DNA of 64,000 nucleotides from a virus (taxonomy: Duplodnaviria; Heunggongvirae; Uroviricota; Caudoviricetes), in IMG/VR virus record IMGVR_UViG_3300021403_000003, positions 49,952 to 113,951 of that record; one strand, given 5' to 3'. Below the pieces are notes generated by a model. That model was not told the DNA's origin. It searched no databases and was given only the letters and a program-made list of their open reading frames with translations. Both the position numbers and the translations under genes were made by a program. Below, in pieces: positions 11,160-50,701 of this stretch (position 1 is its first letter; each line of letters begins with the position of its first letter).

Positions 11160-11374
11160 GGAAATCAGACGTAGAATCTGTTCTTCAAAAGGGTCAAAGT
11201 CATCTGGATTCAGTACATCAGCAGGGCTAGGATCAGAATCAACTGTGGATGCCCACCAAAGTGCGCACTGAGTGGCAACCTAGAATCCGGGAGCTGATTG
11301 TAGATGAGGAAAATGATAGAGACAATTGCTGTCAGTGACTTTTCATCTAATCATTGATGGTACACGAAAGCGAG

Positions 11375-11415
11375 AGCCGAATGAAGCGTCCGTGCCCAGT
11401 TCGGCTTTTTCGTTT
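11375..11415 (+). terminator. Hairpin plus T-run (possible terminator or attenuator)
   Basis: AGCCGAA/TTCGGCT stem with 18-nt loop, then TTTTTCGTTTG. Confidence 0.3.
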
Positions 11416-11431
11416 GTCCCTAAATAATCCC

Positions 11432-11965
11432 ATGAAATACATTGACACACTTAAAAATCTACAACGAAAGAAACTCACGAAGGTTTTCTCACTCAAAGAA
11501 CAAGTGCAAGTGGATTGTCCAGGTGGGTTCTTTGTCAAGGCACTCCCAACCACTGAATCAGCTGTTCTTTTGGCTTCCTATTTTCGTGTTTTGGATCCTT
11601 TGCAAATTGATCTTCATGCAACTGTATTATACACAAAGCAAACTGCTGTAGATGTCATCCTACCAAAAATAGACAAACACTCAAGATATTCTGCAATTGG
11701 CAAAGAATTATTGTATTGGGAATCTAATGATGGGAATATTGTTCTTAAGCTTGATTCTCCTGATCTTGTGGCTCTTCACCAACAATTCAAAGATGCTGGC
11801 TTGGTTCCTAGTTTTCCGGAATATATTCCACATGTGACTCTCATACATCCTTGTGAGTACAATCACTACCAACATTTGATGAATGATCTCAGCTCTCGTT
11901 TGTCCTCTGCTCCTCTCTCACTTGAATTTTATTATGGTGGCTATACAATCATGGAAACAACATGA
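11432..11965 (+). CDS. 2H phosphoesterase (LigT / 2',3'-cyclic phosphodiesterase-like)
   Basis: Two H-x-T-x motifs (HATV and HVTL) at the spacing typical of the 2H superfamily; start taken at internal Met downstream of the hairpin. Confidence 0.5.
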   Translation: MKYIDTLKNLQRKKLTKVFSLKEQVQVDCPGGFFVKALPTTESAVLLASYFRVLDPLQIDLHATVLYTKQTAVDVILPKIDKHSRYSAIGKELLYWESNDGNIVLKLDSPDLVALHQQFKDAGLVPSFPEYIPHVTLIHPCEYNHYQHLMNDLSSRLSSAPLSLEFYYGGYTIMETT

Positions 11966-20928: not shown

Positions 20929-21381
20929 ATGAATCACCGTGAATTGTTATCAGAAATAATTGCATTTGCCACACAACGACATTATGGTCAGTTTGATAAA
21001 GGTGGCAATCCTTACATTCTTCATCCTTTGAAGGTGATGTATTTTCTTAAGACAGATGATGAAGAACTGCAATGTATTGCTGTAGGTCATGATCTAATTG
21101 AAGATACATCTACATCATATGCAGACCTCAAGGAAATTGGGATGACTTTGAGGATCATAGAAGGTATCAGACACCTTACCAATGTACCAGGAGAAACTTA
21201 TGAGGACAAAATCGAGAGAATTTGTTCCAATAAGGATGCCATGTTGGTAAAGCTTTGCGATCTTCGTCACAATTCTGACATCCGCCGACTCAAGGGCGTA
21301 ACGGAAAAAGATCTCAAGAGAATTGAACGGTACCAAAAGATGTACACTGAGATCAAGAATCGATTACAAACCATCAAGTGA
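20929..21381 (+). CDS. HD-domain hydrolase of the RelA/SpoT type (small alarmone (p)ppGpp hydrolase-like)
   Basis: GNPYILHP ... HDLIEDT matches the SpoT/Mesh1 HD motif pattern. Confidence 0.6.
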   Translation: MNHRELLSEIIAFATQRHYGQFDKGGNPYILHPLKVMYFLKTDDEELQCIAVGHDLIEDTSTSYADLKEIGMTLRIIEGIRHLTNVPGETYEDKIERICSNKDAMLVKLCDLRHNSDIRRLKGVTEKDLKRIERYQKMYTEIKNRLQTIK

Positions 21382-21489: not shown

Positions 21490-22542
21490 GTGAAGCATAT
21501 CCCTCAACTTGATGGTTTCAGAGCACTAGCTTGCCTGTTGGTGTTAGGAGCCCACCTCTGGAGATATCCACCTGATCATATCATCACCATGCGAGTGTTT
21601 GGTGGTGGATGGGTTGGTGTAGACGTTTTCTTTGTTCTTTCGGGTTTCCTGATCACTAGGATCCTAATTGAGTCAAAAGACAACCAAAGTTACTTCTCGA
21701 ATTTCTACATCAGGAGAGCTCTTAGAATATTCCCGGTAAATTACATTTTGATGGGAATTGTTCTGTTCGCTTTGCCTTTGTTCTCTAAATTTCCTCAATT
21801 GATGCAAGTAAAGCATGATGAACTTTGGTATTTGTTCTATGCAGCAAACATCATCATAGGGATTGGAGGATGGCAACTCTCACTTCTAAACATAACATGG
21901 TCATTGGCAATTGAGGAACAATTTTATTTGATTTGGCCTGCAATGATGAGATGGTTTTCTATTGAGAGGATGAAAATCATCTGTATTTCTTTGATCATCA
22001 TGGTCCCTGTTTTCAGAGCCATTTTATATCCTTACATTGGCTGGACATGGTGTTATGTTGCAACTCCTTTAAGAACTGATTCATTTGCATGGGGTGCAAT
22101 GATAGCTTTAGGTGGACAAGTTTTCTTCCGTCAAACTGCCATGTGTATGTTGATGATCCCGGTTTGGATTATCGTTCCTAATTTGATCCTTGGTAATTTT
22201 ATGAGGGAAGAATACTGGGTGAGTTCTTTGGGATATAGTTTGACAGCTATGGCCGCAGCGGGAGGATTATGGTTGGTTCTCAATGCAAAGAAAACCATTT
22301 TCTCAAATGTTGTTTTGAGAGAAATCGGGAAAGTGAGCTATGGTACATATTTGTATCACCCTCTTGTATCAGTTGTCGTAAGTCGTTTCTTTGAGGGTAA
22401 ATCTCTTCTAGGATCATGGATTTTTATGGTGATATCAACTTGTCTATCACTTGGTGTTGCAGAACTTTCCTTTAGGTACTTTGAATCACCTATCATGTCA
22501 TTAAGGCAGAAAGTTGTCTCCGTTTGGGGATGGAATGGGTGA
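21490..22542 (+). CDS. Acyltransferase family 3 (membrane-bound O-acyltransferase)
   Basis: About 10 predicted TM helices; N-terminal LDGFRALACLLV and YFFVLSGFLI blocks typical of acyltransferase_3. Confidence 0.6.
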   Translation: MKHIPQLDGFRALACLLVLGAHLWRYPPDHIITMRVFGGGWVGVDVFFVLSGFLITRILIESKDNQSYFSNFYIRRALRIFPVNYILMGIVLFALPLFSKFPQLMQVKHDELWYLFYAANIIIGIGGWQLSLLNITWSLAIEEQFYLIWPAMMRWFSIERMKIICISLIIMVPVFRAILYPYIGWTWCYVATPLRTDSFAWGAMIALGGQVFFRQTAMCMLMIPVWIIVPNLILGNFMREEYWVSSLGYSLTAMAAAGGLWLVLNAKKTIFSNVVLREIGKVSYGTYLYHPLVSVVVSRFFEGKSLLGSWIFMVISTCLSLGVAELSFRYFESPIMSLRQKVVSVWGWNG

Positions 22543-22583: not shown

Positions 22584-22591
22584 ACGATTCA

Positions 22592-22873
22592 TCAAGATTG
22601 AACTTCCATGAGAACCTTGGTCAAATTCTCAATCACAGTCTGACTGAGGCCAGATTGAACAGGCAATGCTTGTTGACATGTAGTTAACATGTCCATTGCA
22701 TCTTGATCTTCAGGAGATTGTGATTCTGTATCACCTTTCCTAATTTGCCAAAGTCGAAGTCCCATTAACAATACTCTGATCTCAATTTCATTGAGATGAT
22801 CAGACCCCTGTTCGGCCTTGATTTCTAACAGGCGCAGTGCTGTCATTATCACTTCAGATTCGATCTCATTCAT
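22592..22873 (-). CDS. Hypothetical acidic protein (last gene of the leftward operon)
   Basis: Overlaps upstream gene by 4 nt. Confidence 0.35.
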   Translation of the reverse strand: MNEIESEVIMTALRLLEIKAEQGSDHLNEIEIRVLLMGLRLWQIRKGDTESQSPEDQDAMDMLTTCQQALPVQSGLSQTVIENLTKVLMEVQS

Positions 22874-23652
22874 GTTCCCTCCTTTATCCCAAGATTTTTG
22901 TTAACAGTTTTACCATACCTCTTTTCCCAGGTTGGAAACCCAATATCACGGAGGAATTGCTTGGCAACTCTCTCAGTCATTGGTAAAGGCAAACCTTCAT
23001 AATACCAATGTGGTGGTTTGGTGGTTAATGATCTGAACACCTGCCCTTGCATGATGTCTTCTGCCCAGCAGTGTACAACAGGCCTTTTACCCCAACGCTG
23101 TCTGATAATCCGACGCAAAGGTAAGACAGTGTTCCACCAAGTCCCTTCATTCGTTCCTTGCCAAGTGTCCAAAATATAGAAATCAAACTTCTTCGTTGTT
23201 GTCTGTAAAAATTGATTGATGTCAGCATTCACAACATCATATCCTGGTTGAGCACAAAGATTTATCACATCTGGATCAATTTCAACGACTGTGATATTTT
23301 CAACATCTGCTCTATCAGCCAAAGTGAGAGCCAAAATGCCGAGTCCGAGACCACCAACCAAGATGTTGCCACTTGGTTTCAAATTGTGCAACATCTCAGC
23401 AATTTGATTGAGTTCTTCAGGAAGGTCTGTCATCCAAAGACCATGATCTTGATGAACTAATTCATGAACCCGTAGTGGCTCATTGATAATAGCCATCGAT
23501 GGTCGCATTCCTCTGATGATAGCTTGTCTCATTCCAACGACTGGTGTTTCGCTGCCAGGTGTTAGAATGTGATGTTGAACGCGAACCTTCCCAGAACATC
23601 TTTCTGGGATATCAAGAGGAGATTTGAACCATTTTGCTTCATACTTGATCAT
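22870..23652 (-). CDS. Class-I SAM-dependent methyltransferase-fold protein (spermidine synthase-like)
   Basis: GGLGLGILA glycine-rich loop followed by VVEID acidic beta-2 end and FDFYILD. Confidence 0.45.
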   Translation of the reverse strand: MIKYEAKWFKSPLDIPERCSGKVRVQHHILTPGSETPVVGMRQAIIRGMRPSMAIINEPLRVHELVHQDHGLWMTDLPEELNQIAEMLHNLKPSGNILVGGLGLGILALTLADRADVENITVVEIDPDVINLCAQPGYDVVNADINQFLQTTTKKFDFYILDTWQGTNEGTWWNTVLPLRRIIRQRWGKRPVVHCWAEDIMQGQVFRSLTTKPPHWYYEGLPLPMTERVAKQFLRDIGFPTWEKRYGKTVNKNLGIKEGT

Positions 23653-24028
23653 ATTTCACTCCAAGTGATTCCCACTGTTCCCAAGTGAGACTAAGTTCAA
23701 GTACCTTGTGACGTCCCCAAAGAGAAGGTTGCGCCTTTTCACCATGATGAGGACAACGATGATCAAAGATCATGAGGCCAGGTGCCTTATGTAATTCCTC
23801 AGGATTATCGCCCCACATTCGTTTGAAATTGTCAGGATTGTTCTGACAAATACACATGCCTGTTCCTTGTTTTCCAGGTTTATTAGTTTGGTTGATGGCT
23901 TTGACAATCGCTTCTGCATGAAATCGTTGACAAACAAGGATTTCTTCATTTGTGTTATCATATACACGTACGCATTGATCACGATCAGGTTTGTCATGAT
24001 GCCAAGGTGTTTTGAGTTCATTCATCAC
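23639..24028 (-). CDS. Cys/His-rich hypothetical protein
   Basis: Multiple C/H clusters; overlaps neighbours. Confidence 0.4.
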   Translation of the reverse strand: MMNELKTPWHHDKPDRDQCVRVYDNTNEEILVCQRFHAEAIVKAINQTNKPGKQGTGMCICQNNPDNFKRMWGDNPEELHKAPGLMIFDHRCPHHGEKAQPSLWGRHKVLELSLTWEQWESLGVKYDQV

Positions 24029-24305
24029 TTTTATCTCCTATCAGTTGTTTAAAGATGATTTGCGCTTTGGTCTTTTCTTTTGGTGATCGTTTTGGACTAA
24101 TTAACACATCGAACTCGTATTTGACATTTTCCTCACCATAGAAAACTTTGGCCAAGGTTGTGATTTGTTCACCTCTTTGAAGTGTCCATTTCCTGTTTTG
24201 AAACCTACAGAAAACAAGTCTCACTACAGAATGACCATGACTGATTGTAATCACGTCGTAGGTAATCGTCTTAGTGAATGAGTTGTCATTGCGTCGTTTT
24301 CGCAT
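24018..24305 (-). CDS. Hypothetical protein (start revised to MRKRRND because promoter P6 overlaps the track start)
   Basis: First gene of the leftward operon. Confidence 0.35.
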   Translation of the reverse strand: MRKRRNDNSFTKTITYDVITISHGHSVVRLVFCRFQNRKWTLQRGEQITTLAKVFYGEENVKYEFDVLISPKRSPKEKTKAQIIFKQLIGDKSDE

Positions 24306-24339
24306 GTGATAATCTATCTGCTGGGAATTCTTTAAGAAT

Positions 24340-24368
24340 ATCATACTAAAGGAGTCAATCAAGTAAAG
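24340..24368 (-). promoter_or_regulatory. Early promoter P6 (CTTTAC-N17-TATGAT on minus strand)
   Basis: Same promoter family; drives the leftward operon 24305..22592. Confidence 0.5.
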
Positions 24369-24491
24369 CTTTTTATTTCCAGTTTCGTTTGGATTTTACA
24401 TGGACTATTACTTGTTACATATATTCGTGTTATAGTTGTTCTACAACTGAACCCACTATATACCATTAGAGCCCCACCAAAGGACATTCAA

Positions 24492-24923
24492 ATGAAACGA
24501 ATTGCAATTGCAGCATGTTTGTTGTTAACTTGCCTTTCTTGTAAAGCTGACCCGACTACACTTCCTGATTCTCCGAATCAAAATGATCGTTTAGCAATAC
24601 TTGCAAAAACTGATGATGGAAATGTTATTGGTGTAGACTTAGACAATATGAGATATGACAAACAACATAATATCGTTGAGTTCCTTGAAGTAATTTTAGA
24701 TGGAAAATCACAACAAATTATTTCATCAAAATTATCATTTGCTTGTTGGGATCACAAGGTTTCTAACCCGATGATTACTGTTGTTAGAATGCAAGACAGG
24801 AAAGTCATTCATCAAGAAAAATTGAATGCCAGTTATAAACCCATATCTTCTAACAGTTGGTTGGCTGAAGAATATCAAGCGATTTGTCCAAAAATAAAAG
24901 ATCCACGTGCAACAGAACTGTAA
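24492..24923 (+). CDS. Secreted or lipoprotein-like protein
   Basis: N-terminal MKRIAIAACLLLTCLSC signal peptide. Confidence 0.45.
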   Translation: MKRIAIAACLLLTCLSCKADPTTLPDSPNQNDRLAILAKTDDGNVIGVDLDNMRYDKQHNIVEFLEVILDGKSQQIISSKLSFACWDHKVSNPMITVVRMQDRKVIHQEKLNASYKPISSNSWLAEEYQAICPKIKDPRATEL

Positions 24924-25021
24924 TAACAAGTTGGTTATTGAAAACCGTTTAAACCATTATTTGTCTTAATGAAAGATAGTCTTATAGAGAGAGAGTAAAA
25001 TTTACCTTAATACAGTATAAT

Positions 25022-25050
25022 TTGTACTTTGTAGTAGTAAATTTTATAAA
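25022..25050 (+). promoter_or_regulatory. Sigma70-like promoter candidate (TTGTAC-N17-TATAAA)
   Basis: AT-rich 290-bp intergenic region upstream of 25211. Confidence 0.3.
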
Positions 25051-25210
25051 ACGTCAAGCATTATAGCTTTAACTAAACTGACTCACTTATAAGTTCATGA
25101 TTTAAATGTAATTTTAACCCTTTACTTTTTAATCCACGTCAGGCCAGAGTATTCCTGACGGTGAGGCGAGGTGCTTCCCGCAAAGTAAAAAGTCCATATA
25201 GGAGGAAATT

Positions 25211-25570
25211 ATGAATGTACAGGCTCGCAAAGTTGCAACTCAGTCCAAGCGTGGGAACACCACACAGTCCTTCAAACTGTATCAACTCTTGTCCCGTAAG
25301 GGTGCGGCAAATTCTCAAGAACTTGCGAAGGTGATTGGTCGTCCACCGCATCAGACCTCAGTTTATATTGCTGAACTGACAAGGGTCTATGGAGCCAAGA
25401 TCATCTACGACACAGGCTCCAGAAAGTATGTGTTGCAGAACAAGGTGGAAGTTCCACCACAAGGTGTTGCTGGTTTGAGATGGAAATCTCAACAGTACAA
25501 GCCAGTTCAGCATGTTAACATGATCAAGCGTGGTCCGGGTCGTCCTCGGGCTGAAGCCAGAGCCAGTTAA
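25211..25570 (+). CDS. DNA-binding protein (winged-helix-like) with C-terminal AT-hook (GRPRGRP-type KRGPGRPRAE)
   Basis: GGAGG SD; basic; AT-hook motif at the C-terminus. Confidence 0.45.
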   Translation: MNVQARKVATQSKRGNTTQSFKLYQLLSRKGAANSQELAKVIGRPPHQTSVYIAELTRVYGAKIIYDTGSRKYVLQNKVEVPPQGVAGLRWKSQQYKPVQHVNMIKRGPGRPRAEARAS

Positions 25571-25632
25571 CCTCTGAGGTGATGTTATCCCACCTAATCC
25601 AGCCTATGGGTTGAAGAGGAGGATCTACGTCT

Positions 25633-25678
25633 TTCCGCCATAGAGTGCGGCCAGTCTATCAAGATTGAGCCGCACTCA
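25633..25678 (+). terminator. Rho-independent terminator (GAGTGCGGC/GCCGCACTC stem plus T-run)
   Basis: 9-bp GC-rich stem, 17-nt loop, AATCTTTTCTCG tail. Confidence 0.65.
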
Positions 25679-25961
25679 ATCTTTTCTCGTTGTTGTTTTA
25701 AAACGACAACAGTACCATGTCCGTACTGTCGCGGACGTTTGATTGGAGACTCCTATGGATGACCTAAATCAGGAAGTCACGGAAGAATTGGAAGATTTGA
25801 CCGAAGAAGGTCCTGCTTCAAAGGAGACCAAGGGTGGATTGGGAGGACCATTCCCAGATCCGGGATTTGGCTGGACATTTGTCTAGCTTGATTCTGTCAT
25901 AAGGCGACAGCGCACCCTGGTTCTGGATGAACTGGGGTGCGTTTACAATAAGGGGTCTAAA

Positions 25962-26665
25962 ATGAATATTCCAACTGAAATTACATTAACGATGACTGTA
26001 GAGGCTAGAGCAAGTGTGTTGGTTGTTTTGCGTGAAAAGATCTCTGAAATGGATTATGAAATTTACCGGCTTGATACCCTATGTAAACATGGACGTTTTT
26101 TGAAAGAAAATTATCTATCCATGAAGGAGAAGCAAATGAAAAGAGACATTCTACAACAATCTGTTAACCAACTATGGGAGTGTTATCATGCGCGACCTGA
26201 TGAAAAAGGTAGGAATAGTGATCCAGGACCCGTTGAAGGAACCATCGGTCCATGATACTGTTAAATTGATCATGGAAATTTATGATCAATGTTTGCTCGA
26301 TCCTGATCTTTCGAGAGCGGCATATGGTTGTGCAGTGGGAGGGGTATCACTTGCATTGAATGTGAACCTGCGTACAGCCAGTCTCCTTGTTGAACATGCA
26401 CTTACAATACGAGAGGCAAAAGATACAACTGATGAACGATCCAGGTTCCACAATCACAAATCTCACATTAGACCAGACGAATGATATTGCCATGTCTATT
26501 GATGAGGTCCTTACTGATCCAAATAATAAAAAGATTATCGACATTTTGACAGCAGGTACCAAAGAGCGAGAATTATTACTCAAGGACCTGTTCATGAATG
26601 TTTACGTTCGGGGATTCTTCGCAGGCATGCAGCATGCGATGAATGACGAGTCAAGAGAAAATTAA
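25962..26665 (+). other. Three overlapping ORFs in frames 0/+1/+2 (25962..26255, 26188..26484, 26387..26665): possible frameshifted gene, pseudogene or overprinted genes
   Basis: Each ~95-aa ORF ends inside the next; cannot be resolved from sequence alone. Confidence 0.25.
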
Positions 26666-27039
26666 TGGTAAAAGAGCTGGGAAGCCTTCGCTCCCAGCTC
26701 TTTTTAATTATTGGAGGAATAATGGCTTTAACATACAGCGCTAAACTTTCGGTTACCCCTGGTGATTGGAAAATCAATCATTTGGCTCAACCATGTACGA
26801 TTTACGTTGCGAACAATGGGAGAGTGAGAAATGTTGCTACATTGAGTTGGGAGTCGGAAGCAAAGATGTGTTTGGCGGATGCTCGTATCATGTGTCAATC
26901 CAAACGGATGTATGATTGGATAAACAGCATGTTACATCAAATGAAATCTGTACCCATGCTTCAAAATCGTAAGGTAGCTCATCTCATTGTTGATGGATTC
27001 ACAATCCTCAAAGATGTTGAGGAAGGAGCAAAGGAGTAA
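26665..27039 (+). CDS. Hypothetical protein
   Basis: 124-aa ORF. Confidence 0.4.
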   Translation: MVKELGSLRSQLFLIIGGIMALTYSAKLSVTPGDWKINHLAQPCTIYVANNGRVRNVATLSWESEAKMCLADARIMCQSKRMYDWINSMLHQMKSVPMLQNRKVAHLIVDGFTILKDVEEGAKE

Positions 27040-27208
27040 CAGAATCATGAAGCGTCGTGAAAAACTGTACCGAGCCGCTAGAGTGCGTAACACTTCAGCC
27101 CTATGGAGACTGTTAGAGCGCCGGGAGGGCAAGAAAGGTGGCACGTATTATGTATGCATAGCGATCGGCAATCCGAAGCTAAAGGAAATTGCTAGACAAC
27201 TGAACTAG
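26987..27208 (+). CDS. Small basic protein (possibly starting at the internal MKRREK)
   Basis: R/K-rich. Confidence 0.3.
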   Translation: MLMDSQSSKMLRKEQRSNRIMKRREKLYRAARVRNTSALWRLLERREGKKGGTYYVCIAIGNPKLKEIARQLN

Positions 27209-27248
27209 GTAATTACCCGAGTCGGTATTAGCTGGCTCGGGAACCTAG
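27205..27248. terminator. Long hairpin between convergent genes
   Basis: CTAGGT...CCCGAG...CTCGGG...ACCTAG nested inverted repeat. Confidence 0.4.
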
Positions 27249-27271
27249 ACCTTTGATGTATCGTTTCTTCG

Positions 27272-27658
27272 TCATTTGATTACCCAACCAATACTGAAAA
27301 CATAACGTGCACGATCCTTCACTTCAGTGACCTCATGTTTGTATAAATCAGCACGGAAGAATTTGATTCTTCTACTTTCATAGATCATTTTCTCACACAA
27401 AAATTCTCCACCAATTTTGGATTCTCTGATGATGATATTCAAACGATAATGTTTGGTGCCTTCTGTTGCTTGATCCTTGTGTGGTGGGACTTTTGAACCT
27501 ACTTTGTAGCGTATGATCAAAACGTGAAATGGGATGAACAAAGGATTCAGTAAGAAAATGAATATCTCATATCCTGTTTTTTGACGACCAAGTTTCCAAT
27601 GAAACAGATCCTTGGATTGAAGTTTCGTTTGTTTCCAAGTCAGATTATGAAATTTCAC
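27272..27658 (-). CDS. 2OG-Fe(II) oxygenase superfamily protein (small DSBH enzyme)
   Basis: PPHKD (HxD) ... RLNIII ... GGEF ... KHEV (distal His) pattern. Confidence 0.45.
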   Translation of the reverse strand: MKFHNLTWKQTKLQSKDLFHWKLGRQKTGYEIFIFLLNPLFIPFHVLIIRYKVGSKVPPHKDQATEGTKHYRLNIIIRESKIGGEFLCEKMIYESRRIKFFRADLYKHEVTEVKDRARYVFSIGWVIK

Positions 27659-27667
27659 GTAATTTCC

Positions 27668-27955
27668 TTATACATGAACCCAAGTTGCACCATCATTAGG
27701 AAACATTATTGCTTTTTCTTTTTTAGAAATCCAATATTGAATACTTGGATGTTCGACCAATTGTGCAAGTATAATGGAACCTTTGTAGAGCTCTTCTTTT
27801 GAGAGTATTGGTGGCGATGTCATAAAAGCACTAGCATGTTGAAACACGCTTTCTGCAATTTCTACAAGTTTGTCTGCGTATTCTAATGAATGGACAGGTA
27901 TGCGGATGGTTTCACCATCGTGGGTGATTTCTACAATACAATTAAACACTTTCAT
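27668..27955 (-). CDS. Hypothetical protein
   Basis: Operon member. Confidence 0.35.
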   Translation of the reverse strand: MKVFNCIVEITHDGETIRIPVHSLEYADKLVEIAESVFQHASAFMTSPPILSKEELYKGSIILAQLVEHPSIQYWISKKEKAIMFPNDGATWVHV

Positions 27956-28130
27956 CTATCTGAGTAATCTCAACACCATTTAAATATTCTTTCAATTGAC
28001 GTCTATAGACAATAGCTGACCCTATGAGAAAATTGTCAGTTATTTTACTCTCGATGATGCGACTTAGGAACCTGATAGTTGATACAACTTCTTCATCAAA
28101 CTCCAATTTGTTAAGATTGTTCGTTTGCAT
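27942..28130 (-). CDS. Hypothetical protein
   Basis: Operon member; overlaps neighbour. Confidence 0.3.
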   Translation of the reverse strand: MQTNNLNKLEFDEEVVSTIRFLSRIIESKITDNFLIGSAIVYRRQLKEYLNGVEITQIDESV

Positions 28131-28161
28131 GCATCCTCATTTCTTGCGAAACATAGTTCCC

Positions 28162-28698
28162 TCACTTCAAAATATTGATTAACATCTCAACATGAGAATC
28201 TAAAATACCATTTTCCCAACTTGTTTGAACCAAGTTCTGATCAGGATGGAAATCGCTATCGTCATCCACGCAAGCAAATTGTTTTACTTCTAGATGATCA
28301 TTGAGCCAAGCTTTTACTTCATCTCCACGGATACCTGATCTTTTGCGAGGTGTGATATCTATGATGGGTGCTTCCCAACCAAGTTCTTTCAACATATCCT
28401 TGATTTCATCTAAAGGATGAAGAATACGCCAAGAAGATGAAATTACAATTTGACATCCTGTCGTTTCTACAACCTTTCGAATTCTGGTCAAACAAATGGG
28501 ATCAATTTCAGCTGTGCCTCTTGAAAGCAAAGAAGTCATGTTTATGATCTTCTCTTGATTTTCATGAATGAATTTGCTGGAATTCAGTACTCCATCTATA
28601 TCAAGAAATAGGACTTTCATTTGTGTATCTTTCTGAAAACTGATCTGAGTGCCATCGGTAATGTTGTTACTTGTTCGTTTTGATTCTTTGCTTGACAT
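28162..28698 (-). CDS. HAD-superfamily phosphatase (polynucleotide 3'-phosphatase-like)
   Basis: N-terminal VLFLDIDGVLN matches HAD motif I (DxDG[TV]); later SSSW and D-rich motifs. Confidence 0.55.
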   Translation of the reverse strand: MSSKESKRTSNNITDGTQISFQKDTQMKVLFLDIDGVLNSSKFIHENQEKIINMTSLLSRGTAEIDPICLTRIRKVVETTGCQIVISSSWRILHPLDEIKDMLKELGWEAPIIDITPRKRSGIRGDEVKAWLNDHLEVKQFACVDDDSDFHPDQNLVQTSWENGILDSHVEMLINILK

Positions 28699-28862
28699 AA
28701 TCTAGATTCTGGGCACCCACAATTAGGAAATTGACACCACTCGAAATTGTACTCTGTATTACCATAGTCATTGACTTCTGCCTTACAATAATAACACCAA
28801 GAACCGGCACATTCTAGATGGTCACAATCAGGTGTCAAATCTATATTTCTTCCAAGGTCCAA
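28617..28862 (-). CDS. Cys-rich small protein
   Basis: Multiple CxxC-like pairs. Confidence 0.3.
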   Translation of the reverse strand: MDLGRNIDLTPDCDHLECAGSWCYYCKAEVNDYGNTEYNFEWCQFPNCGCPESRLCQAKNQNEQVTTLPMALRSVFRKIHK

Positions 28863-29149
28863 TCATTTTTGATGAAAGGATGACTTTTGTCCTTTAAACT
28901 CCAAGCTTCTCGTTCATCAATGTTGCTATCGACGATCATTTGTTTCACAAGTAAATGATTGTAATATCCCCCATTGATCCAAGTCCAACTAGGTTTTTGT
29001 GGATAGATCTTACCCTTTTTGGATAAATTTGTTTTCACGTATATCCAAATCTTGATACTACCATCAGGATTCTTGATTTGAAGTTTGACTTCTCTCGACG
29101 GCCTGTAGTACATTCCAGTTGGTATGTGCTTGAAACGATAACACTTCAT
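28841..29149 (-). CDS. Hypothetical protein
   Basis: Operon member. Confidence 0.35.
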   Translation of the reverse strand: MKCYRFKHIPTGMYYRPSREVKLQIKNPDGSIKIWIYVKTNLSKKGKIYPQKPSWTWINGGYYNHLLVKQMIVDSNIDEREAWSLKDKSHPFIKNDWTLEEI

Positions 29150-29616
29150 ATATTGCCTGCAATGATGATTTCAGAACGAACTTCCATTAAAATTTTACCT
29201 AACCAGTTCAACCCATCATTTTTGCAAACTCCCCAAAACTTGTCACCCCACCAATTACCTTCAATCAATTCTGCATTACCAGTGGCAATCAATTTGGCCC
29301 GAAGTTCTGGATTCATGAATTTATGACGAATCAGGTCTCTCATTATCGGAACTTTGACAAAATCCCAATCAACCCTGAAACTCTTGATGGTCTTTCCGGC
29401 CTTCTTGGCTTGAGCTGCTGTCATGTTTTTGAATTGCCAACGTTCTGTTATATCAGAAGCTTTTGCAGCCTGATAAGCATTTTCAACTGATGGATATGTA
29501 TCACCATCGAATTTTACTTCAACTTGCCAAAAATTACTCAACCAACGGTATTCACCAGAAAAAGAAGTAATTTCAGTCACGTTTCCAAATCCTTCTTGTA
29601 TACTGAAAACAACCAA
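29146..29616 (-). CDS. NADAR-domain protein (YbiA/DUF1768-like N-glycosidase)
   Basis: YRWLSNFW ... ENAYQAAK ... W(G/D)...GxN.LG.ILM.VR matches the NADAR signature. Confidence 0.65.
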   Translation of the reverse strand: MVVFSIQEGFGNVTEITSFSGEYRWLSNFWQVEVKFDGDTYPSVENAYQAAKASDITERWQFKNMTAAQAKKAGKTIKSFRVDWDFVKVPIMRDLIRHKFMNPELRAKLIATGNAELIEGNWWGDKFWGVCKNDGLNWLGKILMEVRSEIIIAGNI

Positions 29617-29818
29617 CCATAACGATAATTGAACCTAAAACCATGAAGAAGAAAAACAAAATCATAGCGTAGAAAATTAAATTATCAATTGGATTAGGTT
29701 CGAAAATATCTCTTTTTTGAATAAGGTCAATCAATCCAATAATGGTACTGATAAACACACCAACACTGAGTACACCCCAAGTTGGAAAGAAATATTTGAG
29801 GAATGTTAGATTTTTCAT
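29573..29818 (-). CDS. Small membrane protein (2 TM), first gene of the leftward operon
   Basis: Hydrophobic segments. Confidence 0.4.
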   Translation of the reverse strand: MKNLTFLKYFFPTWGVLSVGVFISTIIGLIDLIQKRDIFEPNPIDNLIFYAMILFFFFMVLGSIIVMVGCFQYTRRIWKRD

Positions 29819-29882
29819 GCAACAAGTCTACCTTGAACTTTTGTAAGAATTATAATTCATTGAATATAATGAAAATTCTTTG

Positions 29883-29911
29883 CTTTACTCCAGAATCAAA
29901 ATCAGTATGAT
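29883..29911 (+). promoter_or_regulatory. Early promoter P7 (CTTTAC-N17-TATGAT)
   Basis: Same family; followed by AAGGAG SD and ATG at 29942. Confidence 0.5.
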
Positions 29912-29941
29912 TGATTTCATAGTAAATCAAGGAGACCGATA

Positions 29942-30091
29942 AATGAAACTGCAATATCACACCTACGAAGATGGTTGTGTTGCTGTTGTCCGTAGCAATC
30001 GTCGTGGTCCTTGTTCTCCAAGCCGTCGGATTGCTCGCGCTCGATGGCACAGGTCAGGCTTCATCGCCTATAAGGGAACTGGAAGGTAACC
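29942..30091 (+). CDS. Small basic Cys-containing protein (~49 aa), not in the ORF track; alternative to track ORF 29971..30204
   Basis: Strong SD AAGGAG at 8-nt spacing; reads MKLQYHTYEDGCVAVVRSNRRGPCSPSRRIARARWHRSGFIAYKGTGR. Confidence 0.3.
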
Positions 30092-30170
30092 TTTACTTCT
30101 GGTTCGGATCCAGCGATACTAAGCCTAACGATAAGAGGAGACTTAAAGGTGCAGATCAAACTCAATCAAG

Positions 30171-30244
30171 TTGCTTCGTGAAGATATCGAGGCTGCTTTG
30201 GTAGAAGTTGCTTCGTGAAGATATCGAGGCTGCTTTGGTAGAAG
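30171..30244 (+). repeat. Perfect 37-bp tandem duplication (x2) at a gene junction
   Basis: TTGCTTCGTGAAGATATCGAGGCTGCTTTGGTAGAAG twice; the unit length is not a multiple of 3. Confidence 0.9.
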
Positions 30245-30555
30245 TTGCTAAAAAGCATAAATTGTCCAAATTGAAATTGGGAAGAATCAATTTCAATCAA
30301 GATGCTTTTCAAGCTGAAATTGAAGGTGTGATTGAGGGTGGTGAATCCAGGGAAGTACAGCTCTACAAAGCTTATGCTGATTCTCTTGGATTACCTGTAT
30401 TTGGATCCATGGTGAAGGTTGGAAATAGAGAAATGGCAATTATTGGATTACGAGTCGGTGGTCCTCACAAGATCATTCTTCTTCGTGATTTGGTTACAGA
30501 CAAGCCTTATAGAATCAACGTCAAAAAATTCCTTGCTGGAATTCGGAGAAGCTAA
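30208..30555 (+). CDS. Hypothetical protein with no canonical start (TTG in track); start confused by the 37-bp duplication
   Basis: 115-aa ORF; the strong SD AAGAGGAG+GTG at 30149 is in another frame and stops after 10 codons. Confidence 0.35.
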   Translation: MLREDIEAALVEVAKKHKLSKLKLGRINFNQDAFQAEIEGVIEGGESREVQLYKAYADSLGLPVFGSMVKVGNREMAIIGLRVGGPHKIILLRDLVTDKPYRINVKKFLAGIRRS

Positions 30556-31314: not shown

Positions 31315-31598
31315 TCATGACTACAAGAAAACATAAAGTGAAGATAGAGTCAAGGGCTCTAAGAGATGAACCAGAAGGAGAAATTCGAAATCCTCCCAGA
31401 AAGTTTTTGAAATTAAAATGGTATCTTTATACCATTTTCACTTTCTTGTTATGGGGTTTCATCGACCCTGCTCTGATTTCTGCAAAGGATGACCTTTCTG
31501 TCATTGGTGGGGTTGCTTTGGCTGTTGTTTGGGTAGAGATTTCATACTATTTTTGGGTAAAACCGTTGATCAATAAACTGAAGGAGAATGTATCTTGA
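31311..31598 (+). CDS. Membrane protein (2 TM)
   Basis: Hydrophobic helices; ATGA overlap. Confidence 0.4.
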   Translation: MIMTTRKHKVKIESRALRDEPEGEIRNPPRKFLKLKWYLYTIFTFLLWGFIDPALISAKDDLSVIGGVALAVVWVEISYYFWVKPLINKLKENVS

Positions 31599-32428
31599 AG
31601 TCAATCGTGCGAATTGTTACTATTGCTTTGATTTGTGCTGCAATGGTGGCTTGTATGAAGGTGCCTGTTGGCAGTGTTGGTATTATGGTGGATCTATATG
31701 GCAGTGACAAGGGAGTTCTCCCAAAAGAATTGGGACCAGGAAGGTACTATGTCGGTTACAACCAGGAACTGTTTACATTCCCAACGTATACACAAACATA
31801 TACTTGGACTAGGAGTTTGACTGAAGGTCGTGCACAGGATGAATCATTTACGTTCAATTCTGTGGAGGGTATTTCCGTCAATGCAGATGTTGGTATCACA
31901 CTGCACGTTGATCCAACAAAGACTGCTGAACTTTTCCAAAAGTATCGTCGTGGTATGGATGAGATTCTTGATACATTTGTTCATAACCTCGTTCGTGATG
32001 CATTGAATGAACGATCTTCAACCATGCCTATTGAGGACATCTATGGTAAGGGTAAGGCTCAGCTTATCGCTGATGCACAAAAAACTGTACAGGACCAATT
32101 GAATCCTGTTGGTATTGTGGTTGAAAAATTATACTTGGTATCAGCTCCACGTCTACCGGATGCAATCATCACTGCCATCAACAACAAGATGAAGGCAACT
32201 CAGATGGCTGAGCAGCGCAATAATGAAATTGCTCAGGCTGAGGCTGAGAAAACCATCAAGATCAAGGAAGCTGAGGGTGAGGCCCAGTCTATCAAAATCA
32301 AGGGTGATGCACTTCGTGATAATCCAGGCTTGGTTCAGTTGGAAGCTGTTCGAAAGTGGGATGGTCATTTGCCAAACGTGAGTGGTGGTGCTGTACCATT
32401 CATTCAGGTTACACCCACAGGAAAGTAA
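31595..32428 (+). CDS. SPFH/band-7 (prohibitin/HflC-like) membrane-anchored protein
   Basis: N-terminal TM/signal segment, SPFH core, and C-terminal AQAEAEKTIKIKEAEGEAQSIK coiled coil. Confidence 0.6.
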   Translation: MKSIVRIVTIALICAAMVACMKVPVGSVGIMVDLYGSDKGVLPKELGPGRYYVGYNQELFTFPTYTQTYTWTRSLTEGRAQDESFTFNSVEGISVNADVGITLHVDPTKTAELFQKYRRGMDEILDTFVHNLVRDALNERSSTMPIEDIYGKGKAQLIADAQKTVQDQLNPVGIVVEKLYLVSAPRLPDAIITAINNKMKATQMAEQRNNEIAQAEAEKTIKIKEAEGEAQSIKIKGDALRDNPGLVQLEAVRKWDGHLPNVSGGAVPFIQVTPTGK

Positions 32429-37351: not shown

Positions 37352-39046
37352 GTGAAGATATTTGGTTTCGATATCAAGAAATTCAGTGATGAAGTCCCTG
37401 AATCTCCAGTTATGCCACAAAATGATGATGGAGCTATCGTCATTGAAGCTCCTGTCAGTGGTATCTATGTTGATCTTGATTCCTCTTATCGTTCAGAATT
37501 AGATCTCATTCACAAATATCGTCAAATGGCACTCCAACCAGAAATGGAGAATGCTATCAATGATATTGTTGATGAAGCTATCGTTCATGATTCCGATTCT
37601 GGTGAAATCATCAAAATCAACATGGATCGCCTTAAGCAACCAGACAAGATTAAATCATTGATTCGTGAAGAATTTAATAATGTTTTGAAATTGTTAGATT
37701 TCAACAATTTTGGAGATGAGATCTTCCGTAAATGGTACATTGATGGTCGTTTGTATTACAATGTTATCATTGACAAAGATAACCCTCGTGATGGTATTCA
37801 AACCCTTGTATACATTGACAGTCGTAAGATCAAGAAAGTTCGTCAGGTCACCAAGGATAAGAATGCACAAGGAGTTGAAGTCATTACAGGTGTAGAAGAA
37901 TTCTACGTCTATAATGATAAACTTCTCATGACTAATCCAAACAGTGGCAACCCGCTGTTTCAGACTTCCGTTGCTGCAGGTATCCGCTTATCAGCAGACA
38001 GTGTTGTGCAGGTCACATCAGGTGTATATGATCCAATCAAAGCAACCATCCTCAGCTACCTTCACAAGGCTATCCGCCCTCTGAATCAGCTTCGTTTTGT
38101 TGAAGATGCAACAGTTATATATCGTGTAAGTCGTGCTCCAGAACGTCGTGTGTTCTATGTAGACACGAGCGGAATGAACAAAGCCAAGGCTGAACAGTAC
38201 ATGAAGAGCCTTATGACCAACTATCGTAACAAGTTGTCATATGATGCTTCTACAGGAGAGATTCAGGATCAACGTAAGTTTTTGGCAATGATTGAAGATT
38301 ATTGGATGCCACGTAATTCAACAGGCAAATCCAGTGAAATCACGACCCTACCTGCAGGTCAGAACCTTGGTCAAATGGAAGATGTGTTGTATTTCGAAAA
38401 GAAGCTATACAAGGCTCTTGGTATTCCAGCATCCCGTATTGAAAATCCAACAGGGTTATTTAATATTGGTCAGCCTGGCACCATAACTCGCGACGAGGTG
38501 AAATACACAAAGTTCATTCATCGTATGCGTTCACGTTTTTCTTCATTGTTTGATCAATTGATGGAACGTCAATTGGCATTGAAAGGTGTTTGCACAGTCG
38601 AGGAATGGAACCAATTCAAACAAGATTGTTTTTATCAATATCAAGAGGATAACAACTTTGCTGAGTTGAAAGAAACTGAGATCTTGATGAATCGTATGAA
38701 CACATTGACAGTTGTTCAACCATTCATGGGAATTTTCTTCAGTAAGAGTTGGGTCTGGAAGAACATCCTACGCATGGATGAAGATGAAATTAATGATATG
38801 AAAAAGGAAATGGAAGAAGAATTTCAAGATGCAGAAACTCAAGGACATCCACCATTGGCTGGATTCCCACCTGTTGTCCCACCTGGTGCGCCTGTTCCAA
38901 TGGATGGTGATGGACAACCAGGCGCACCAGGTCAAGCTCAACCAGCTGTACCAAAATCACCTGGTCAAGAGGTAGAGGATTCAACTCCAGCAGGACAAGC
39001 TCAAAAGAAAATAAATGATCAAACTAAGGCTTTCTTGAAAAAGTGA
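37352..39046 (+). CDS. Portal vertex protein (gp20-like) with Pro-rich C-terminal tail; GTG start
   Basis: 564 aa, position after gp18/gp19. Confidence 0.8.
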   Translation: MKIFGFDIKKFSDEVPESPVMPQNDDGAIVIEAPVSGIYVDLDSSYRSELDLIHKYRQMALQPEMENAINDIVDEAIVHDSDSGEIIKINMDRLKQPDKIKSLIREEFNNVLKLLDFNNFGDEIFRKWYIDGRLYYNVIIDKDNPRDGIQTLVYIDSRKIKKVRQVTKDKNAQGVEVITGVEEFYVYNDKLLMTNPNSGNPLFQTSVAAGIRLSADSVVQVTSGVYDPIKATILSYLHKAIRPLNQLRFVEDATVIYRVSRAPERRVFYVDTSGMNKAKAEQYMKSLMTNYRNKLSYDASTGEIQDQRKFLAMIEDYWMPRNSTGKSSEITTLPAGQNLGQMEDVLYFEKKLYKALGIPASRIENPTGLFNIGQPGTITRDEVKYTKFIHRMRSRFSSLFDQLMERQLALKGVCTVEEWNQFKQDCFYQYQEDNNFAELKETEILMNRMNTLTVVQPFMGIFFSKSWVWKNILRMDEDEINDMKKEMEEEFQDAETQGHPPLAGFPPVVPPGAPVPMDGDGQPGAPGQAQPAVPKSPGQEVEDSTPAGQAQKKINDQTKAFLKK

Positions 39047-49214: not shown

Positions 49215-50701
49215 GTGTCATCTACGTCGAGAAAATCAATGAATCACAATTAAAGATTCATACTGAGCAAGCGATCGAACAAGAACTTTGGGAATTCTAC
49301 AGTTTCAGAGACCCAAATTACAAGTTCACTCCACAGTACAGAAAATACAAGTGGAATGGTTATATTCGTCTCTTCCAGAAACGATCTAAAACTCTCCCAG
49401 CAGGATTGTTCAGACACCTCTGTATATTTGCTAAGGAACGGAATCATACCATCCAAGGATATCAATATCTGGCCCAAAACTTTTCCATAGAGGATGCTCG
49501 GAACTACACGAAAGGTTTAAACATCACAACCAAGGGTATATCCATTACACCCTATGATCATCAGGTCCTTGCTATAACAAAGGCTCTGAGGTATAAGAGA
49601 ACCATCTTAGAAAGTTCCACATCAAGTGGCAAATCATTGATTTGTTACACTATTTCTCGATATTTGATCGAAAAAGAAAAGAGAGGATTAATCATTGTAC
49701 CAACTATTGGATTGGTTGAACAGATGTACAGTGATTTTCAAGATTACAGTTCATTCAATGGTTGGAATACCAGCACCTATGTTCACAAAATATATGGTGG
49801 ACTTGACAAATTTAGTGTCAAACAGATTTATCTATCAACTTGGCAATCCATTTATGAGATGGAAGATCCTGATTGGTATAGACAATTTGAATGGGTTGTT
49901 GGAGATGAAGCACATAAATTTACAGGTAAATCATTGACTGGACTCATGACCCAAATGACCAATGCTGATTACAGAATTGGTATGACAGGAACAGTACAAG
50001 ATGGTGAAGTTCACCGTTTGGTGCTAGAAGGAAATTTCGGACCAATTGCAAAGATCGCTACCAATAAAGAGTTGATGGACAAGAAAATTGTTAGTGATCT
50101 GTTAGTTAAATGTTTAGTGCTCAGATATCCACAAACTGAATGTTATGCTGTCAGTAAAATGGATTATCACAAGGAATTGGATTTCCTCGTCACCCATAAA
50201 TACCGCAACAATTTCATCAAAAACCTTTCTTTATCATTGAAAGGTAACACGATGATTCTGTTTCAATTTGTAGAAAAACATGGTAAGGTTTTGTATGAAT
50301 TGATTAAACAAGCAGCTGGTAACAGAAGTGTGTATTTGATTTGTGGTGAAACAGAAGTTGAGCAAAGAGAATACATCAGAAAGATTGTCGAAACTGAAAA
50401 TGATGCAATCATCATTGCATCATTTGGTACATGTCAAGAAGGAATTTCTATTAAGAAAATTCACAGTATAATTTTTGCAAGTCCAAGTAAATCCAAAATC
50501 AGAGTCCTTCAATCAATTGGTCGTGGACTTCGTCTTGATGAATCTAAGGAATTTGCCACCTTGTACGACATCGCTGATGATTTAAGGATTGGTGACGAAA
50601 TTAATATCACATTGCTTCATTACGTGGAACGTCAAAAGCTCTATCACAGGGAGCAATTCAAAGTAAAAGTGTATAATGTAAATCTTGGGAGTAAATCATG
50701 A
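49211..50701 (+). CDS. uvsW: UvsW-like SF2 DNA helicase
   Basis: Walker A SSTSSGKS, motif II VVGDEAHKF, downstream TGT and QSIGRGLR helicase motifs. Confidence 0.75.
   Translation: MSVIYVEKINESQLKIHTEQAIEQELWEFYSFRDPNYKFTPQYRKYKWNGYIRLFQKRSKTLPAGLFRHLCIFAKERNHTIQGYQYLAQNFSIEDARNYTKGLNITTKGISITPYDHQVLAITKALRYKRTILESSTSSGKSLICYTISRYLIEKEKRGLIIVPTIGLVEQMYSDFQDYSSFNGWNTSTYVHKIYGGLDKFSVKQIYLSTWQSIYEMEDPDWYRQFEWVVGDEAHKFTGKSLTGLMTQMTNADYRIGMTGTVQDGEVHRLVLEGNFGPIAKIATNKELMDKKIVSDLLVKCLVLRYPQTECYAVSKMDYHKELDFLVTHKYRNNFIKNLSLSLKGNTMILFQFVEKHGKVLYELIKQAAGNRSVYLICGETEVEQREYIRKIVETENDAIIIASFGTCQEGISIKKIHSIIFASPSKSKIRVLQSIGRGLRLDESKEFATLYDIADDLRIGDEINITLLHYVERQKLYHREQFKVKVYNVNLGSKS

Follow-up and report, generated by a model that had tools for sequence, protein, structure and literature searches.

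A probable mosaic accessory operon with NADAR, HAD_SAK_2 and mini-oxygenase genes in an uncultured T4-like myovirus

A leftward gene block at positions 27272-29818 was analysed in a 64-kb stretch of viral DNA (IMG/VR record IMGVR_UViG_3300021403_000003, positions 49,952 to 113,951; the whole stretch of 64,000 nucleotides is called the window below). The window belongs to a large, uncultured T4-like myovirus with genes for a gp20-type portal, a tail sheath and a large terminase (TerL), and the block encodes a NADAR (YbiA-type) protein, a HAD phosphatase of the HAD_SAK_2 family and a small Fe(II)/2-oxoglutarate (2OG) oxygenase, together with several short proteins. It is an ordinary mosaic accessory operon and not a conserved repair machine. 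With a probability of roughly 0.6, it represents a lineage-specific, probably co-transcribed accessory operon in a plastic region, consisting of independently moving genes each of which most likely has its own job.

This reading is carried by the gene contexts found in related viruses. Single-protein scans of IMG/VR with the HAD and oxygenase sequences yielded no close relatives; oxygenase loci were found with an alignment of 10 sequences, an alignment of 79 sequences being too divergent for locus finding. Regarding 80 HAD loci, a NADAR gene was present within 6 kb in one lineage only, at a distance of 2.5 kb. Around the closest NADAR relatives (80 loci, 885 kb), profile and hidden Markov model searches detected neither HAD_SAK_2 nor the mini-oxygenase. 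Regarding 20 oxygenase loci, single-seed searches detected neither NADAR nor HAD, and a search with the NADAR profile gave one weak match (contig L112, E 1.7e-5), at a distance of about 3.6 kb from the oxygenase gene. Clustering and pooled Pfam scans showed the neighbours of the HAD and oxygenase families to be lineage-restricted or heterogeneous.

A close relative of the region is the 6.6-kb contig L092 (Logan SRR14712105), which is syntenic with window positions 22590-28140 at approximately 69-78% nucleotide identity; its oxygenase is 85% identical and the flanks show approximately 77% nucleotide identity. The 62-aa gene of the block is kept in this contig (51% identity), the 95-aa gene is replaced (by a 117-aa gene) and a 123-aa gene is inserted after the oxygenase gene; a HAD gene was not found just upstream of the 62-aa and oxygenase genes of L092. 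Because the differences are whole-gene replacements and insertions around the oxygenase gene, the site is marked as a hot spot of gene turnover, and it bears the signature of a plastic region in which small accessory genes are exchanged one at a time. The first-pass annotation of this DNA had proposed one functional toolkit, which conservation does not back: NADAR accompanies HAD in one lineage among 80 HAD loci, HAD accompanies NADAR in 0 of 80 NADAR loci, and L092 is a mosaic.

The block itself is real, its limits being exactly those of a run of minus-strand open reading frames (ORFs). It had been described as eight overlapping genes; the genes are indeed co-directional and tightly packed, but they number seven confident genes plus one candidate, a cysteine-rich (Cys-rich) ORF, and two of the junctions are gaps. 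The order from 5' to 3' is an 81-aa gene, the NADAR gene, a 102-aa gene, the Cys-rich 81-aa ORF, the HAD gene, a 62-aa gene, a 95-aa gene and the 128-aa oxygenase gene. The 81-aa and NADAR genes overlap by 8 nt, the GTG start of the latter lying over the stop of the former (GTGACTGA); the NADAR and 102-aa genes share an ATGA overlap, and the stop of the Cys-rich ORF overlaps the HAD ATG in the same manner (ATGA). The HAD gene is followed by a 31-nt gap with GAGGA upstream of the ATG of the 62-aa gene, the 62-aa and 95-aa genes overlap by 14 nt, and a 9-nt gap with AAGGA upstream of the GTG start of the oxygenase gene separates the last two genes. Public gene callers place seven genes in the block, with the HAD gene extended to 178 aa in place of the Cys-rich ORF. 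No plus-strand ORF within the block exceeds 82 aa, and each of these overlaps minus-strand genes.

Because of this gene packing, co-transcription of the block is plausible; like the timing of expression, it is something we infer and do not observe. The presumed promoter region is the divergent intergenic region of 152 bp (29819-29970) between the leftward block and a rightward ORF starting at 29971. A consensus scan revealed a minus-strand TATAAT at 29854-29849 and a plus-strand TTGTAA-18-TATAAT at 29841-29870, and no canonical -35 element for the leftward direction in 29819-29970. The best sigma70-like match of the region (TTGACA-16-TAGAAT, 28838-28811, minus strand, 11/12) is located directly after the stop of the 102-aa gene and inside the Cys-rich ORF, which makes an internal promoter for HAD and the downstream genes possible. 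A terminator hairpin after the last gene was rejected, as folding was no better than that of shuffled sequence (z -0.39).

The NADAR gene (29146-29580, minus strand) starts with GTG at 29580 and encodes a predicted ADP-ribosyl N-glycohydrolase of 144 aa; an ORF of 156 aa with a TTG start was rejected as too long, the public gene calls giving 144 aa. The earlier assignment to NADAR (YbiA-like) was confirmed by Pfam model PF08719 (E 6.7e-24, 85.4 bits versus a cutoff of 35.1; residues 22-150 of the 156-aa ORF), with further matches to PHROG 1017 (2e-46) and NCBIfam TIGR02464 (74.1 bits versus a cutoff of 73.7). The best solved relative is E. coli YbiA (PDB 2b3w, E 2e-17), and identity to AdfN-Bas32 is 45% over the full length (E 2e-38). 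The catalytic residues E33 and K40, located seven residues apart in VENAYQAAK, are invariant with YbiA, AdfN-Bas32 and the NADAR of phage RAS14; the same spacing of catalytic Glu and Lys is known from the E. coli C7 NADAR (E88/K95) and T4 AdfN (E36/K43) (PMC11543638, PMC11825919). The third catalytic position is Glu in the YbiA subfamily, Asp in DarT1-linked NADARs and His in T4-type enzymes (PMC11543638 for the T4 type). Here it is E107 in LIEGN, aligned to the Glu of LVEHT in YbiA, which places the protein in the YbiA subfamily. Membership of the T4 gp30.3 type was rejected, the corresponding model PF08010 giving only E 0.019 and the third catalytic residue being Glu, not His.

Relatives of the NADAR gene were detected by tblastn in 472 phage records. 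Regarding the T5-like relatives, a single tight orthologue set comprises 96 records with 95-100% nucleotide identity, including phage IrisVonRoten, which is Bas32 (PMC8594841). As NADAR genes occur in 27% of myoviruses and in about 48% of medium and jumbo phages (PMC9503650), the presence of one in this genome is expected. Scans with Pfam, PHROG, NCBIfam and PADLOC revealed no domain of an ADP-ribosyltransferase (ART) or of another toxin in any of the eight ORFs of the block, so that the gene is an orphan NADAR. A NADAR 48% identical to that of the window was observed on contig L165 (5228-8863) with an AAA_33 kinase gene directly upstream and an Rnl1-like ligase gene 1.4 kb downstream, a context which echoes the published association of NADAR with RNA repair.

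That the NADAR protein acts as a guanine de-ADP-ribosylase on DNA or RNA and counters DarT-type toxins, as had been suggested, is plausible in view of its identity to AdfN-Bas32 and its conserved catalytic residues. All NADAR subtypes tested, YbiA included, hydrolyse guanosine-linked ADP-ribose (G-ADPr) in vitro (PMC11125620), and YbiA-type enzymes also remove ADP-ribose (ADPr) from cytidine (PMC12945103). AdfN-Bas32 was reported by Johannesman et al. to neutralise DarT1 and to restore the plaquing of three phages on DarTG1 hosts (PMC11825919), and three phage NADARs counter DarTG1 (PMC11125620, PMC11825919). The anti-DarT role of phage NADARs is thus already published, and the reading of this gene is well founded and not new.

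The HAD gene (28162-28620, minus strand) encodes a stand-alone capless HAD phosphatase of 152 aa with its true start at MKVLFLDIDGVLN. The extended ORF of 178 aa was rejected, as 49 homologues all begin at MK[VI]LFLDIDG, and because their N-termini align at this motif the start was set to 28620. The description of the protein as a HAD phosphatase with a DIDGVLN motif was borne out: LDIDGVLN is present at the N-terminus and HAD_SAK_2 (PF18143) is matched over its full length (profile positions 1-139/139, E 3.1e-30, 105.8 bits versus a cutoff of 27.5). The 1,433 homologues are nearly all stand-alone proteins of 137-180 aa. Across 49 sequences, the motifs D7-I-D9-G-V, S61/S62, R98 (and R65) and D119/D120 do not vary. 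The AlphaFold model (predicted local distance difference test, pLDDT, 96.9) has HAD structures as top fold matches, which are weak and generic for capless HADs (SP0104, MDP-1 and the T4 Pnkp phosphatase domain, with Pnkp1 lower). A family-profile search of the PDB yielded no solved relative, and no sequence similarity to Pnkp was detected.

Regarding the closest HAD relatives, the gene of one with 51% identity overlaps the 3' end of an Rnl1-type ligase gene, and this in turn overlaps a gene for an AAA_33 P-loop kinase; further genes are those for NatV, NAMPT and Macro (upstream) and for Metallophos_2 (downstream). A relative with 48% identity has Rnl1, Metallophos_2, an Rnl2-type ligase and an Rv2179c-like exoribonuclease within 4 kb, one with 57% identity has Metallophos_2 nearby, and one further examined relative has none of these neighbours. 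Altogether, of the five closest relatives with an examined context, three have kinase and/or Rnl1/Rnl2 ligase genes next to or near HAD. HAD_SAK_2 is the HAD domain of the 'Swiss Army Knife' RNA-repair proteins described by the Aravind group (cited in PMC9503650). The earlier comparison with Pnk-type 3'-phosphatases therefore stands in part: the HAD chemistry and the RNA-ligase and kinase contexts support a Pnkp-like role, but the protein lacks a kinase domain, and no specific similarity to Pnkp was detected. Membership of the Pnkp family was rejected, the 152 aa accounting for the HAD domain only with no fused P-loop kinase, and a role as polynucleotide-end phosphatase is the best inference for this HAD subclade. 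To our knowledge, no member of HAD_SAK_2 has been characterised biochemically.

The 102-aa protein (28841-29149, minus strand, ATG overlapping the NADAR stop) belongs to a small conserved family, of which 13 members are listed, namely the protein of the window and 12 homologues with 41-67% identity. Contig L117 (3992-5804) carries overlapping genes for an AAA_33 kinase, a 102-aa homologue, Rnl1 and HAD_SAK_2, followed by Metallophos_2. On contig L088 (1998-3529), the gene immediately before that of an Rnl2-type ligase encodes a 150-aa protein with a weaker match (E 1.2e-7 by single-seed phmmer) to the 102-aa protein; two other contexts of 102-aa homologues were uninformative. The segment formed by the 102-aa gene, the Cys-rich ORF (if it is a gene) and HAD resembles a fragment detached from an RNA-ligase cassette of related phages, which is the one mildly new observation of this analysis, and the 102-aa protein may be an uncharacterised ligase-associated factor. 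A wider proposal is speculative and rather doubtful. According to it, T4-like phages would possess an undescribed split RNA-repair system (kinase, 102-aa factor, Rnl1/Rnl2, HAD phosphatase and Metallophos_2), and HAD would have been re-coupled to NADAR in this phage and in Stenotrophomonas jumbo phages, the two jointly reversing the ADP-ribosylation of RNA bases and healing ends.

The oxygenase gene (27272-27658, minus strand, GTG start) encodes a minimal double-stranded beta-helix (DSBH) protein of 128 aa with the active site of a 2OG-Fe(II) oxygenase. The small DSBH oxygenase with an HxD...H motif recognised earlier was recovered, with the triad H60-x-D62...H108 and with R118/S122 as the presumed 2OG-binding residues. 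In an alignment of 79 homologues, at least 90% retain H60, D62, H108, R118 and S122, and W21, G24, R25, Y30, R72, N74, F101, R102 and D104 are also conserved in the family. The match to 2OG-FeII_Oxy_3 (PF13640) is under the cutoff (E 5.5e-4, 21.3 bits versus 27), one homologue having a precomputed PF13640 hit; PHROG 13746 is matched at 2e-31 and Asp_Arg_Hydrox weakly. An exhaustive profile search delimited a family of approximately 975 cluster representatives, mostly of 105-125 aa. The structural model is a bare DSBH (pLDDT 94.1), and its closest matches among 2OG enzymes are AspH, viral P4H, OGFOD1 and PHD; AlkB is not one of them. The proposed AlkB-type repair function is therefore unsupported, the protein having no affinity to AlkB and resembling prolyl and aspartyl hydroxylases.

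In isolated phages, the oxygenase was found in 19 records only, most of them from jumbo phages (>200 kb), and 20 IMG/VR loci revealed no fixed partner. The neighbours vary with lineage: an overlapping RtcB gene in one, a preceding NatV gene in another and a following NAMPT gene in Pseudomonas phage Phabio (loci with RtcB, NatV and NAMPT neighbours: L100, 3896-5543; L103, 4995-6630; L102, 3980-5390; L108, 4917-7506). Other neighbours include thymidylate synthase, dCMP deaminase, cREC and Metallophos, genes related to phosphoribosyl pyrophosphate (PRPP), and others.

The first-pass annotation had also cited a LigT-like 2H phosphoesterase gene elsewhere in the window as part of the toolkit. This gene (11354-11965, plus strand, just downstream of the terminase region) encodes instead the 2H phosphodiesterase Acb1 (anti-CBASS), with HATV and HVTL motifs, a match to PF23474 (E 5.5e-14, 52.5 bits versus a cutoff of 27) and PDB matches to the Acb1 structures 9q2g, 9q2y and 7t26. 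An assignment to LigT or the 2H RNA ligases was rejected; both HxT motifs are present, but the curated and PDB matches are to Acb1. Judged by these matches, the gene is a predicted counter-defence gene degrading cyclic-nucleotide signals and not part of RNA repair. The general theme of counter-defence is reasonable for two of the three enzymes of the block, that of NADAR being already known. The AlkB and LigT elements were wrong in detail.

According to the preferred reading, a mosaic accessory operon, leftward transcription would start from the divergent region 29819-29970, possibly assisted by the internal promoter at 28838-28811. NADAR would act as an orphan, antitoxin-like enzyme whose Glu33/Lys40/Glu107 site cuts ADP-ribose off guanines of phage DNA or RNA modified by DarT1-type toxins, following the AdfN mechanism. 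HAD would be a Mg-dependent aspartyl-phosphatase with D7 as the nucleophile (forming a phospho-aspartyl intermediate) and D9 as the acid/base, and may remove 3'/2'-phosphates from RNA ends cut by host anticodon nucleases or other metal-independent RNases, preparing these ends for resealing by a phage ligase with its gene elsewhere. The 102-aa protein would be an accessory of RNA-ligase cassettes that carry HAD, and the oxygenase a minimal P4H/PKHD-like Fe(II)/2OG hydroxylase. The remaining small genes of the block are ORFans.

Several observations weigh against this interpretation or parts of it. Neither the consensus scan nor hairpin folding established a promoter or terminator for the block. 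E. coli YbiA and T4 gp30.3 are active in vitro and alone failed to protect cells from DarT1 (PMC11125620), and the NADAR protein also passes TIGR02464, a model for a riboflavin-intermediate N-glycosidase. In Foldseek searches with the HAD model, T4 Pnkp (2ia5) ranks 3, 4 and 7 with E of about 1e-2 and a template modelling (TM) score of about 0.5, values similar to those of MDP-1 and other HADs. The genes directly adjoining HAD_SAK_2 in 74 distinct IMG/VR loci are heterogeneous and mostly unrelated to RNA repair, RNA-related ones being sporadic (RlaP, the CCA-adding enzyme type and Rv2179c-like). Rnl1, AAA_33 kinase, Macro, NAMPT, NatV and Metallophos_2 were not found by tblastn in the 64-kb window, which leaves HAD with no visible partner. 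Finally, the Stenotrophomonas jumbo phages RAS14/CM1 (320 kb) show translational coupling of NADAR and HAD, with a 4-nt overlap between the NADAR and HAD_SAK_2 genes (L002, 4962-5857, corresponding to OP752703.1, 159961-160856). This is the only tight NADAR-HAD pair found outside the present phage, and it hints that NADAR and HAD are not always independent.

The coupling in RAS14/CM1 counts in favour of an integrated toolkit, i.e., one co-adapted module acting on the same damaged nucleic acid by de-ADP-ribosylation, end-healing and dealkylation. NADAR-HAD adjacency recurs there and in one IMG/VR lineage, where the distance is 2.5 kb; the genes of the block are co-directional and tightly packed with translational coupling, and each of the three families is found somewhere near RNA-repair or nicotinamide adenine dinucleotide (NAD)/ADPr genes (Rnl1 and kinase; RtcB, NatV and NAMPT beside the oxygenase). 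Such a module is nevertheless distinctly improbable, given the lack of conserved co-occurrence in 180 related loci, the gene-by-gene turnover in L092 with heterogeneous neighbours, and an oxygenase without affinity to AlkB. The same coupling could be explained by the processing of small molecules derived from ADPr or NAD, in which NADAR would cleave N-glycosidic bonds of soluble ADPr-derived immune signals or by-products of RNA repair, and HAD would remove a ribose-linked phosphate (e.g., of ADPr-1''-phosphate), so that NAD-derived host signalling is blunted. Relatives of NADAR beside NatV and NAMPT and the signal-degrading Acb1 of the same genome are consistent with this explanation, which is still considered unlikely: every NADAR studied by experiment acts on ADPr attached to bases of nucleic acids, three phage NADARs counter DarTG1 (PMC11125620, PMC11825919), the window contains no NAD-salvage, Macro, SLOG or KptA gene, and the contexts of HAD_SAK_2 tie it to RNA ends and not to ADPr.

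Metabolic housekeeping is the third explanation considered. NADAR would clear reactive intermediates of the riboflavin pathway, HAD would be a nucleotide or sugar phosphatase and the oxygenase an auxiliary metabolic gene product. NADAR scores slightly over the cutoff of TIGR02464 ('riboflavin biosynthesis intermediates N-glycosidase'), its best PDB match is E. coli YbiA, and neighbours of the oxygenase elsewhere include thymidylate synthase, dCMP deaminase and PRPP-related genes. No riboflavin-pathway gene was present, however, among the window genes examined or beside the examined NADAR relatives, and where phage records bear the label 'GTP cyclohydrolase II', the genes concerned are stand-alone NADAR genes of the COG3236 type with approximately 140 aa. 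As YbiA-type enzymes also hydrolyse G-ADPr and cytidine-linked ADPr (C-ADPr) (PMC11125620, PMC12945103) and one member of the T5-like orthologue group is a proven anti-DarT factor, a purely metabolic role of the block is very improbable.

Regarding the small ORFs of the block, the first gene (29573-29818, minus strand) encodes an ORFan of 81 aa in which two hydrophobic stretches are putative transmembrane segments; it is called in public assemblies, forms a singleton cluster and yielded no match in Pfam, PHROG, NCBIfam or PADLOC. The candidate Cys-rich ORF of 81 aa (28617-28862, minus strand) has only a TTG start and contains eight Cys residues in 81 aa (versus a background of 3-4%) in the pattern CxHxxC...CxxC...CxC...C. 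It is called by no public pipeline and has no detected homologue and no family match in Pfam and PHROG. Because HAD starts at 28620, the 220-nt interval before it may hold the Cys-rich ORF, a promoter or both. The 62-aa protein (27942-28130, minus strand) has its 51%-identical homologue at the same relative position in contig L092, and the 95-aa ORFan (27668-27955, minus strand) corresponds in position to the unrelated 117-aa gene of that contig.

In the remainder of the window, the gp20-type portal (37352-39046) is 47% identical to the portals of cyanomyoviruses and of Stenotrophomonas phage DLP_6. A megablast search of 50,697 phage genomes revealed no nucleotide counterpart of the region. 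Identical proteins are encoded by contigs from public metagenomes (38 kb, 80 kb and 267.5 kb), the 38-kb Logan contig being 100% identical to the window across 12.5 kb. Nearly all large genes of the window are rightward and the block is leftward; its G+C content is 36% (versus approximately 40%), and its negative (reversed) GC skew is consistent with leftward coding. No tRNA genes were found in the 64-kb window, and an Rfam scan of the region gave no credible RNA element. The T4 late-promoter motif TATAAATA has 0 copies in the 64 kb (approximately 2 expected by chance), despite the T4-like structural genes.

Accessory genes flanking the block encode an HD_4 domain protein under the Pfam cutoff (20929-21381), an Acyl_transf_3 O-acetyltransferase-like membrane protein (21490-22542) and an SPFH/Band 7 protein (31595-32428); a weak methyltransferase-like protein (22870-23652, minus strand) is encoded within a second leftward cluster at 22870-24362. 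A perfect tandem duplication of 37 bp was observed at 30168-30249 (2.2 copies, 100% match, period not a multiple of 3), spanning the end of a 77-aa plus-strand ORF (29971-30204) and the start of the ORF at 30208-30555. Either a recent duplication or an artefact of assembly may account for it, with a gene start split or remodelled as a result.

The block adds no new principle, and it illustrates that the tight packing of an operon, when found in a plastic region of a phage genome, is no evidence of a functional module. If the roles assigned by homology hold, it represents one more viral lineage with an orphan NADAR against DarT-type DNA ADP-ribosylation, and HAD_SAK_2, a very common phosphatase family of phages (>1,400 homologues, no solved structure), would supply the 3'-end healing that is missing where separate genes take the place of Pnkp. 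In practical terms, the block offers candidates for biochemistry, namely the HAD protein, the 102-aa ligase-associated protein and the mini-oxygenase family (approximately 1,000 clusters).

Compared with known systems, the oxygenase resembles enzymes of the P4H/PHD/AspH type (PBCV-1 vCPH 5c5t, OGFOD1 4nhx and AspH), but with 128 aa it is devoid of their substrate-binding extensions; the likeness is to be read with the score under the Pfam cutoff and with the fact that plain cupins score equally well. T4 Pnkp together with Rnl1 forms a tRNA-repair pathway against anticodon nucleases. The HAD protein shares the aspartyl-phosphatase chemistry of that pathway, and the occurrence of three of five HAD relatives with or near Rnl1 and a separate kinase corresponds to a split Pnkp arrangement, whereas the protein itself has no kinase domain and the window has no ligase or kinase gene. 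The Swiss Army Knife proteins share the full-length HAD_SAK_2 match, which is part of a multidomain protein there and stands alone here. Acb1 (T4 gp57B) is resembled by the gene at 11354-11965 in the Pfam model, the crystal structures and both HxT motifs; this gene lies outside the operon. E. coli YbiA (COG3236, 2b3w) belongs to the same subfamily as the NADAR protein by TIGR02464 and the conserved Glu107, but identity is 36%, the gene described here is phage-borne and has no LexA/dinG operon context, and the physiological substrate likely differs. The closest functional parallel is AdfN-Bas32. It stems from a T5-like siphovirus, whereas the present protein stems from a T4-like myovirus; both are stand-alone NADAR domains of approximately 145 aa with no adjacent ADP-ribosyltransferase and with the same Glu/Lys/Glu catalytic residues.

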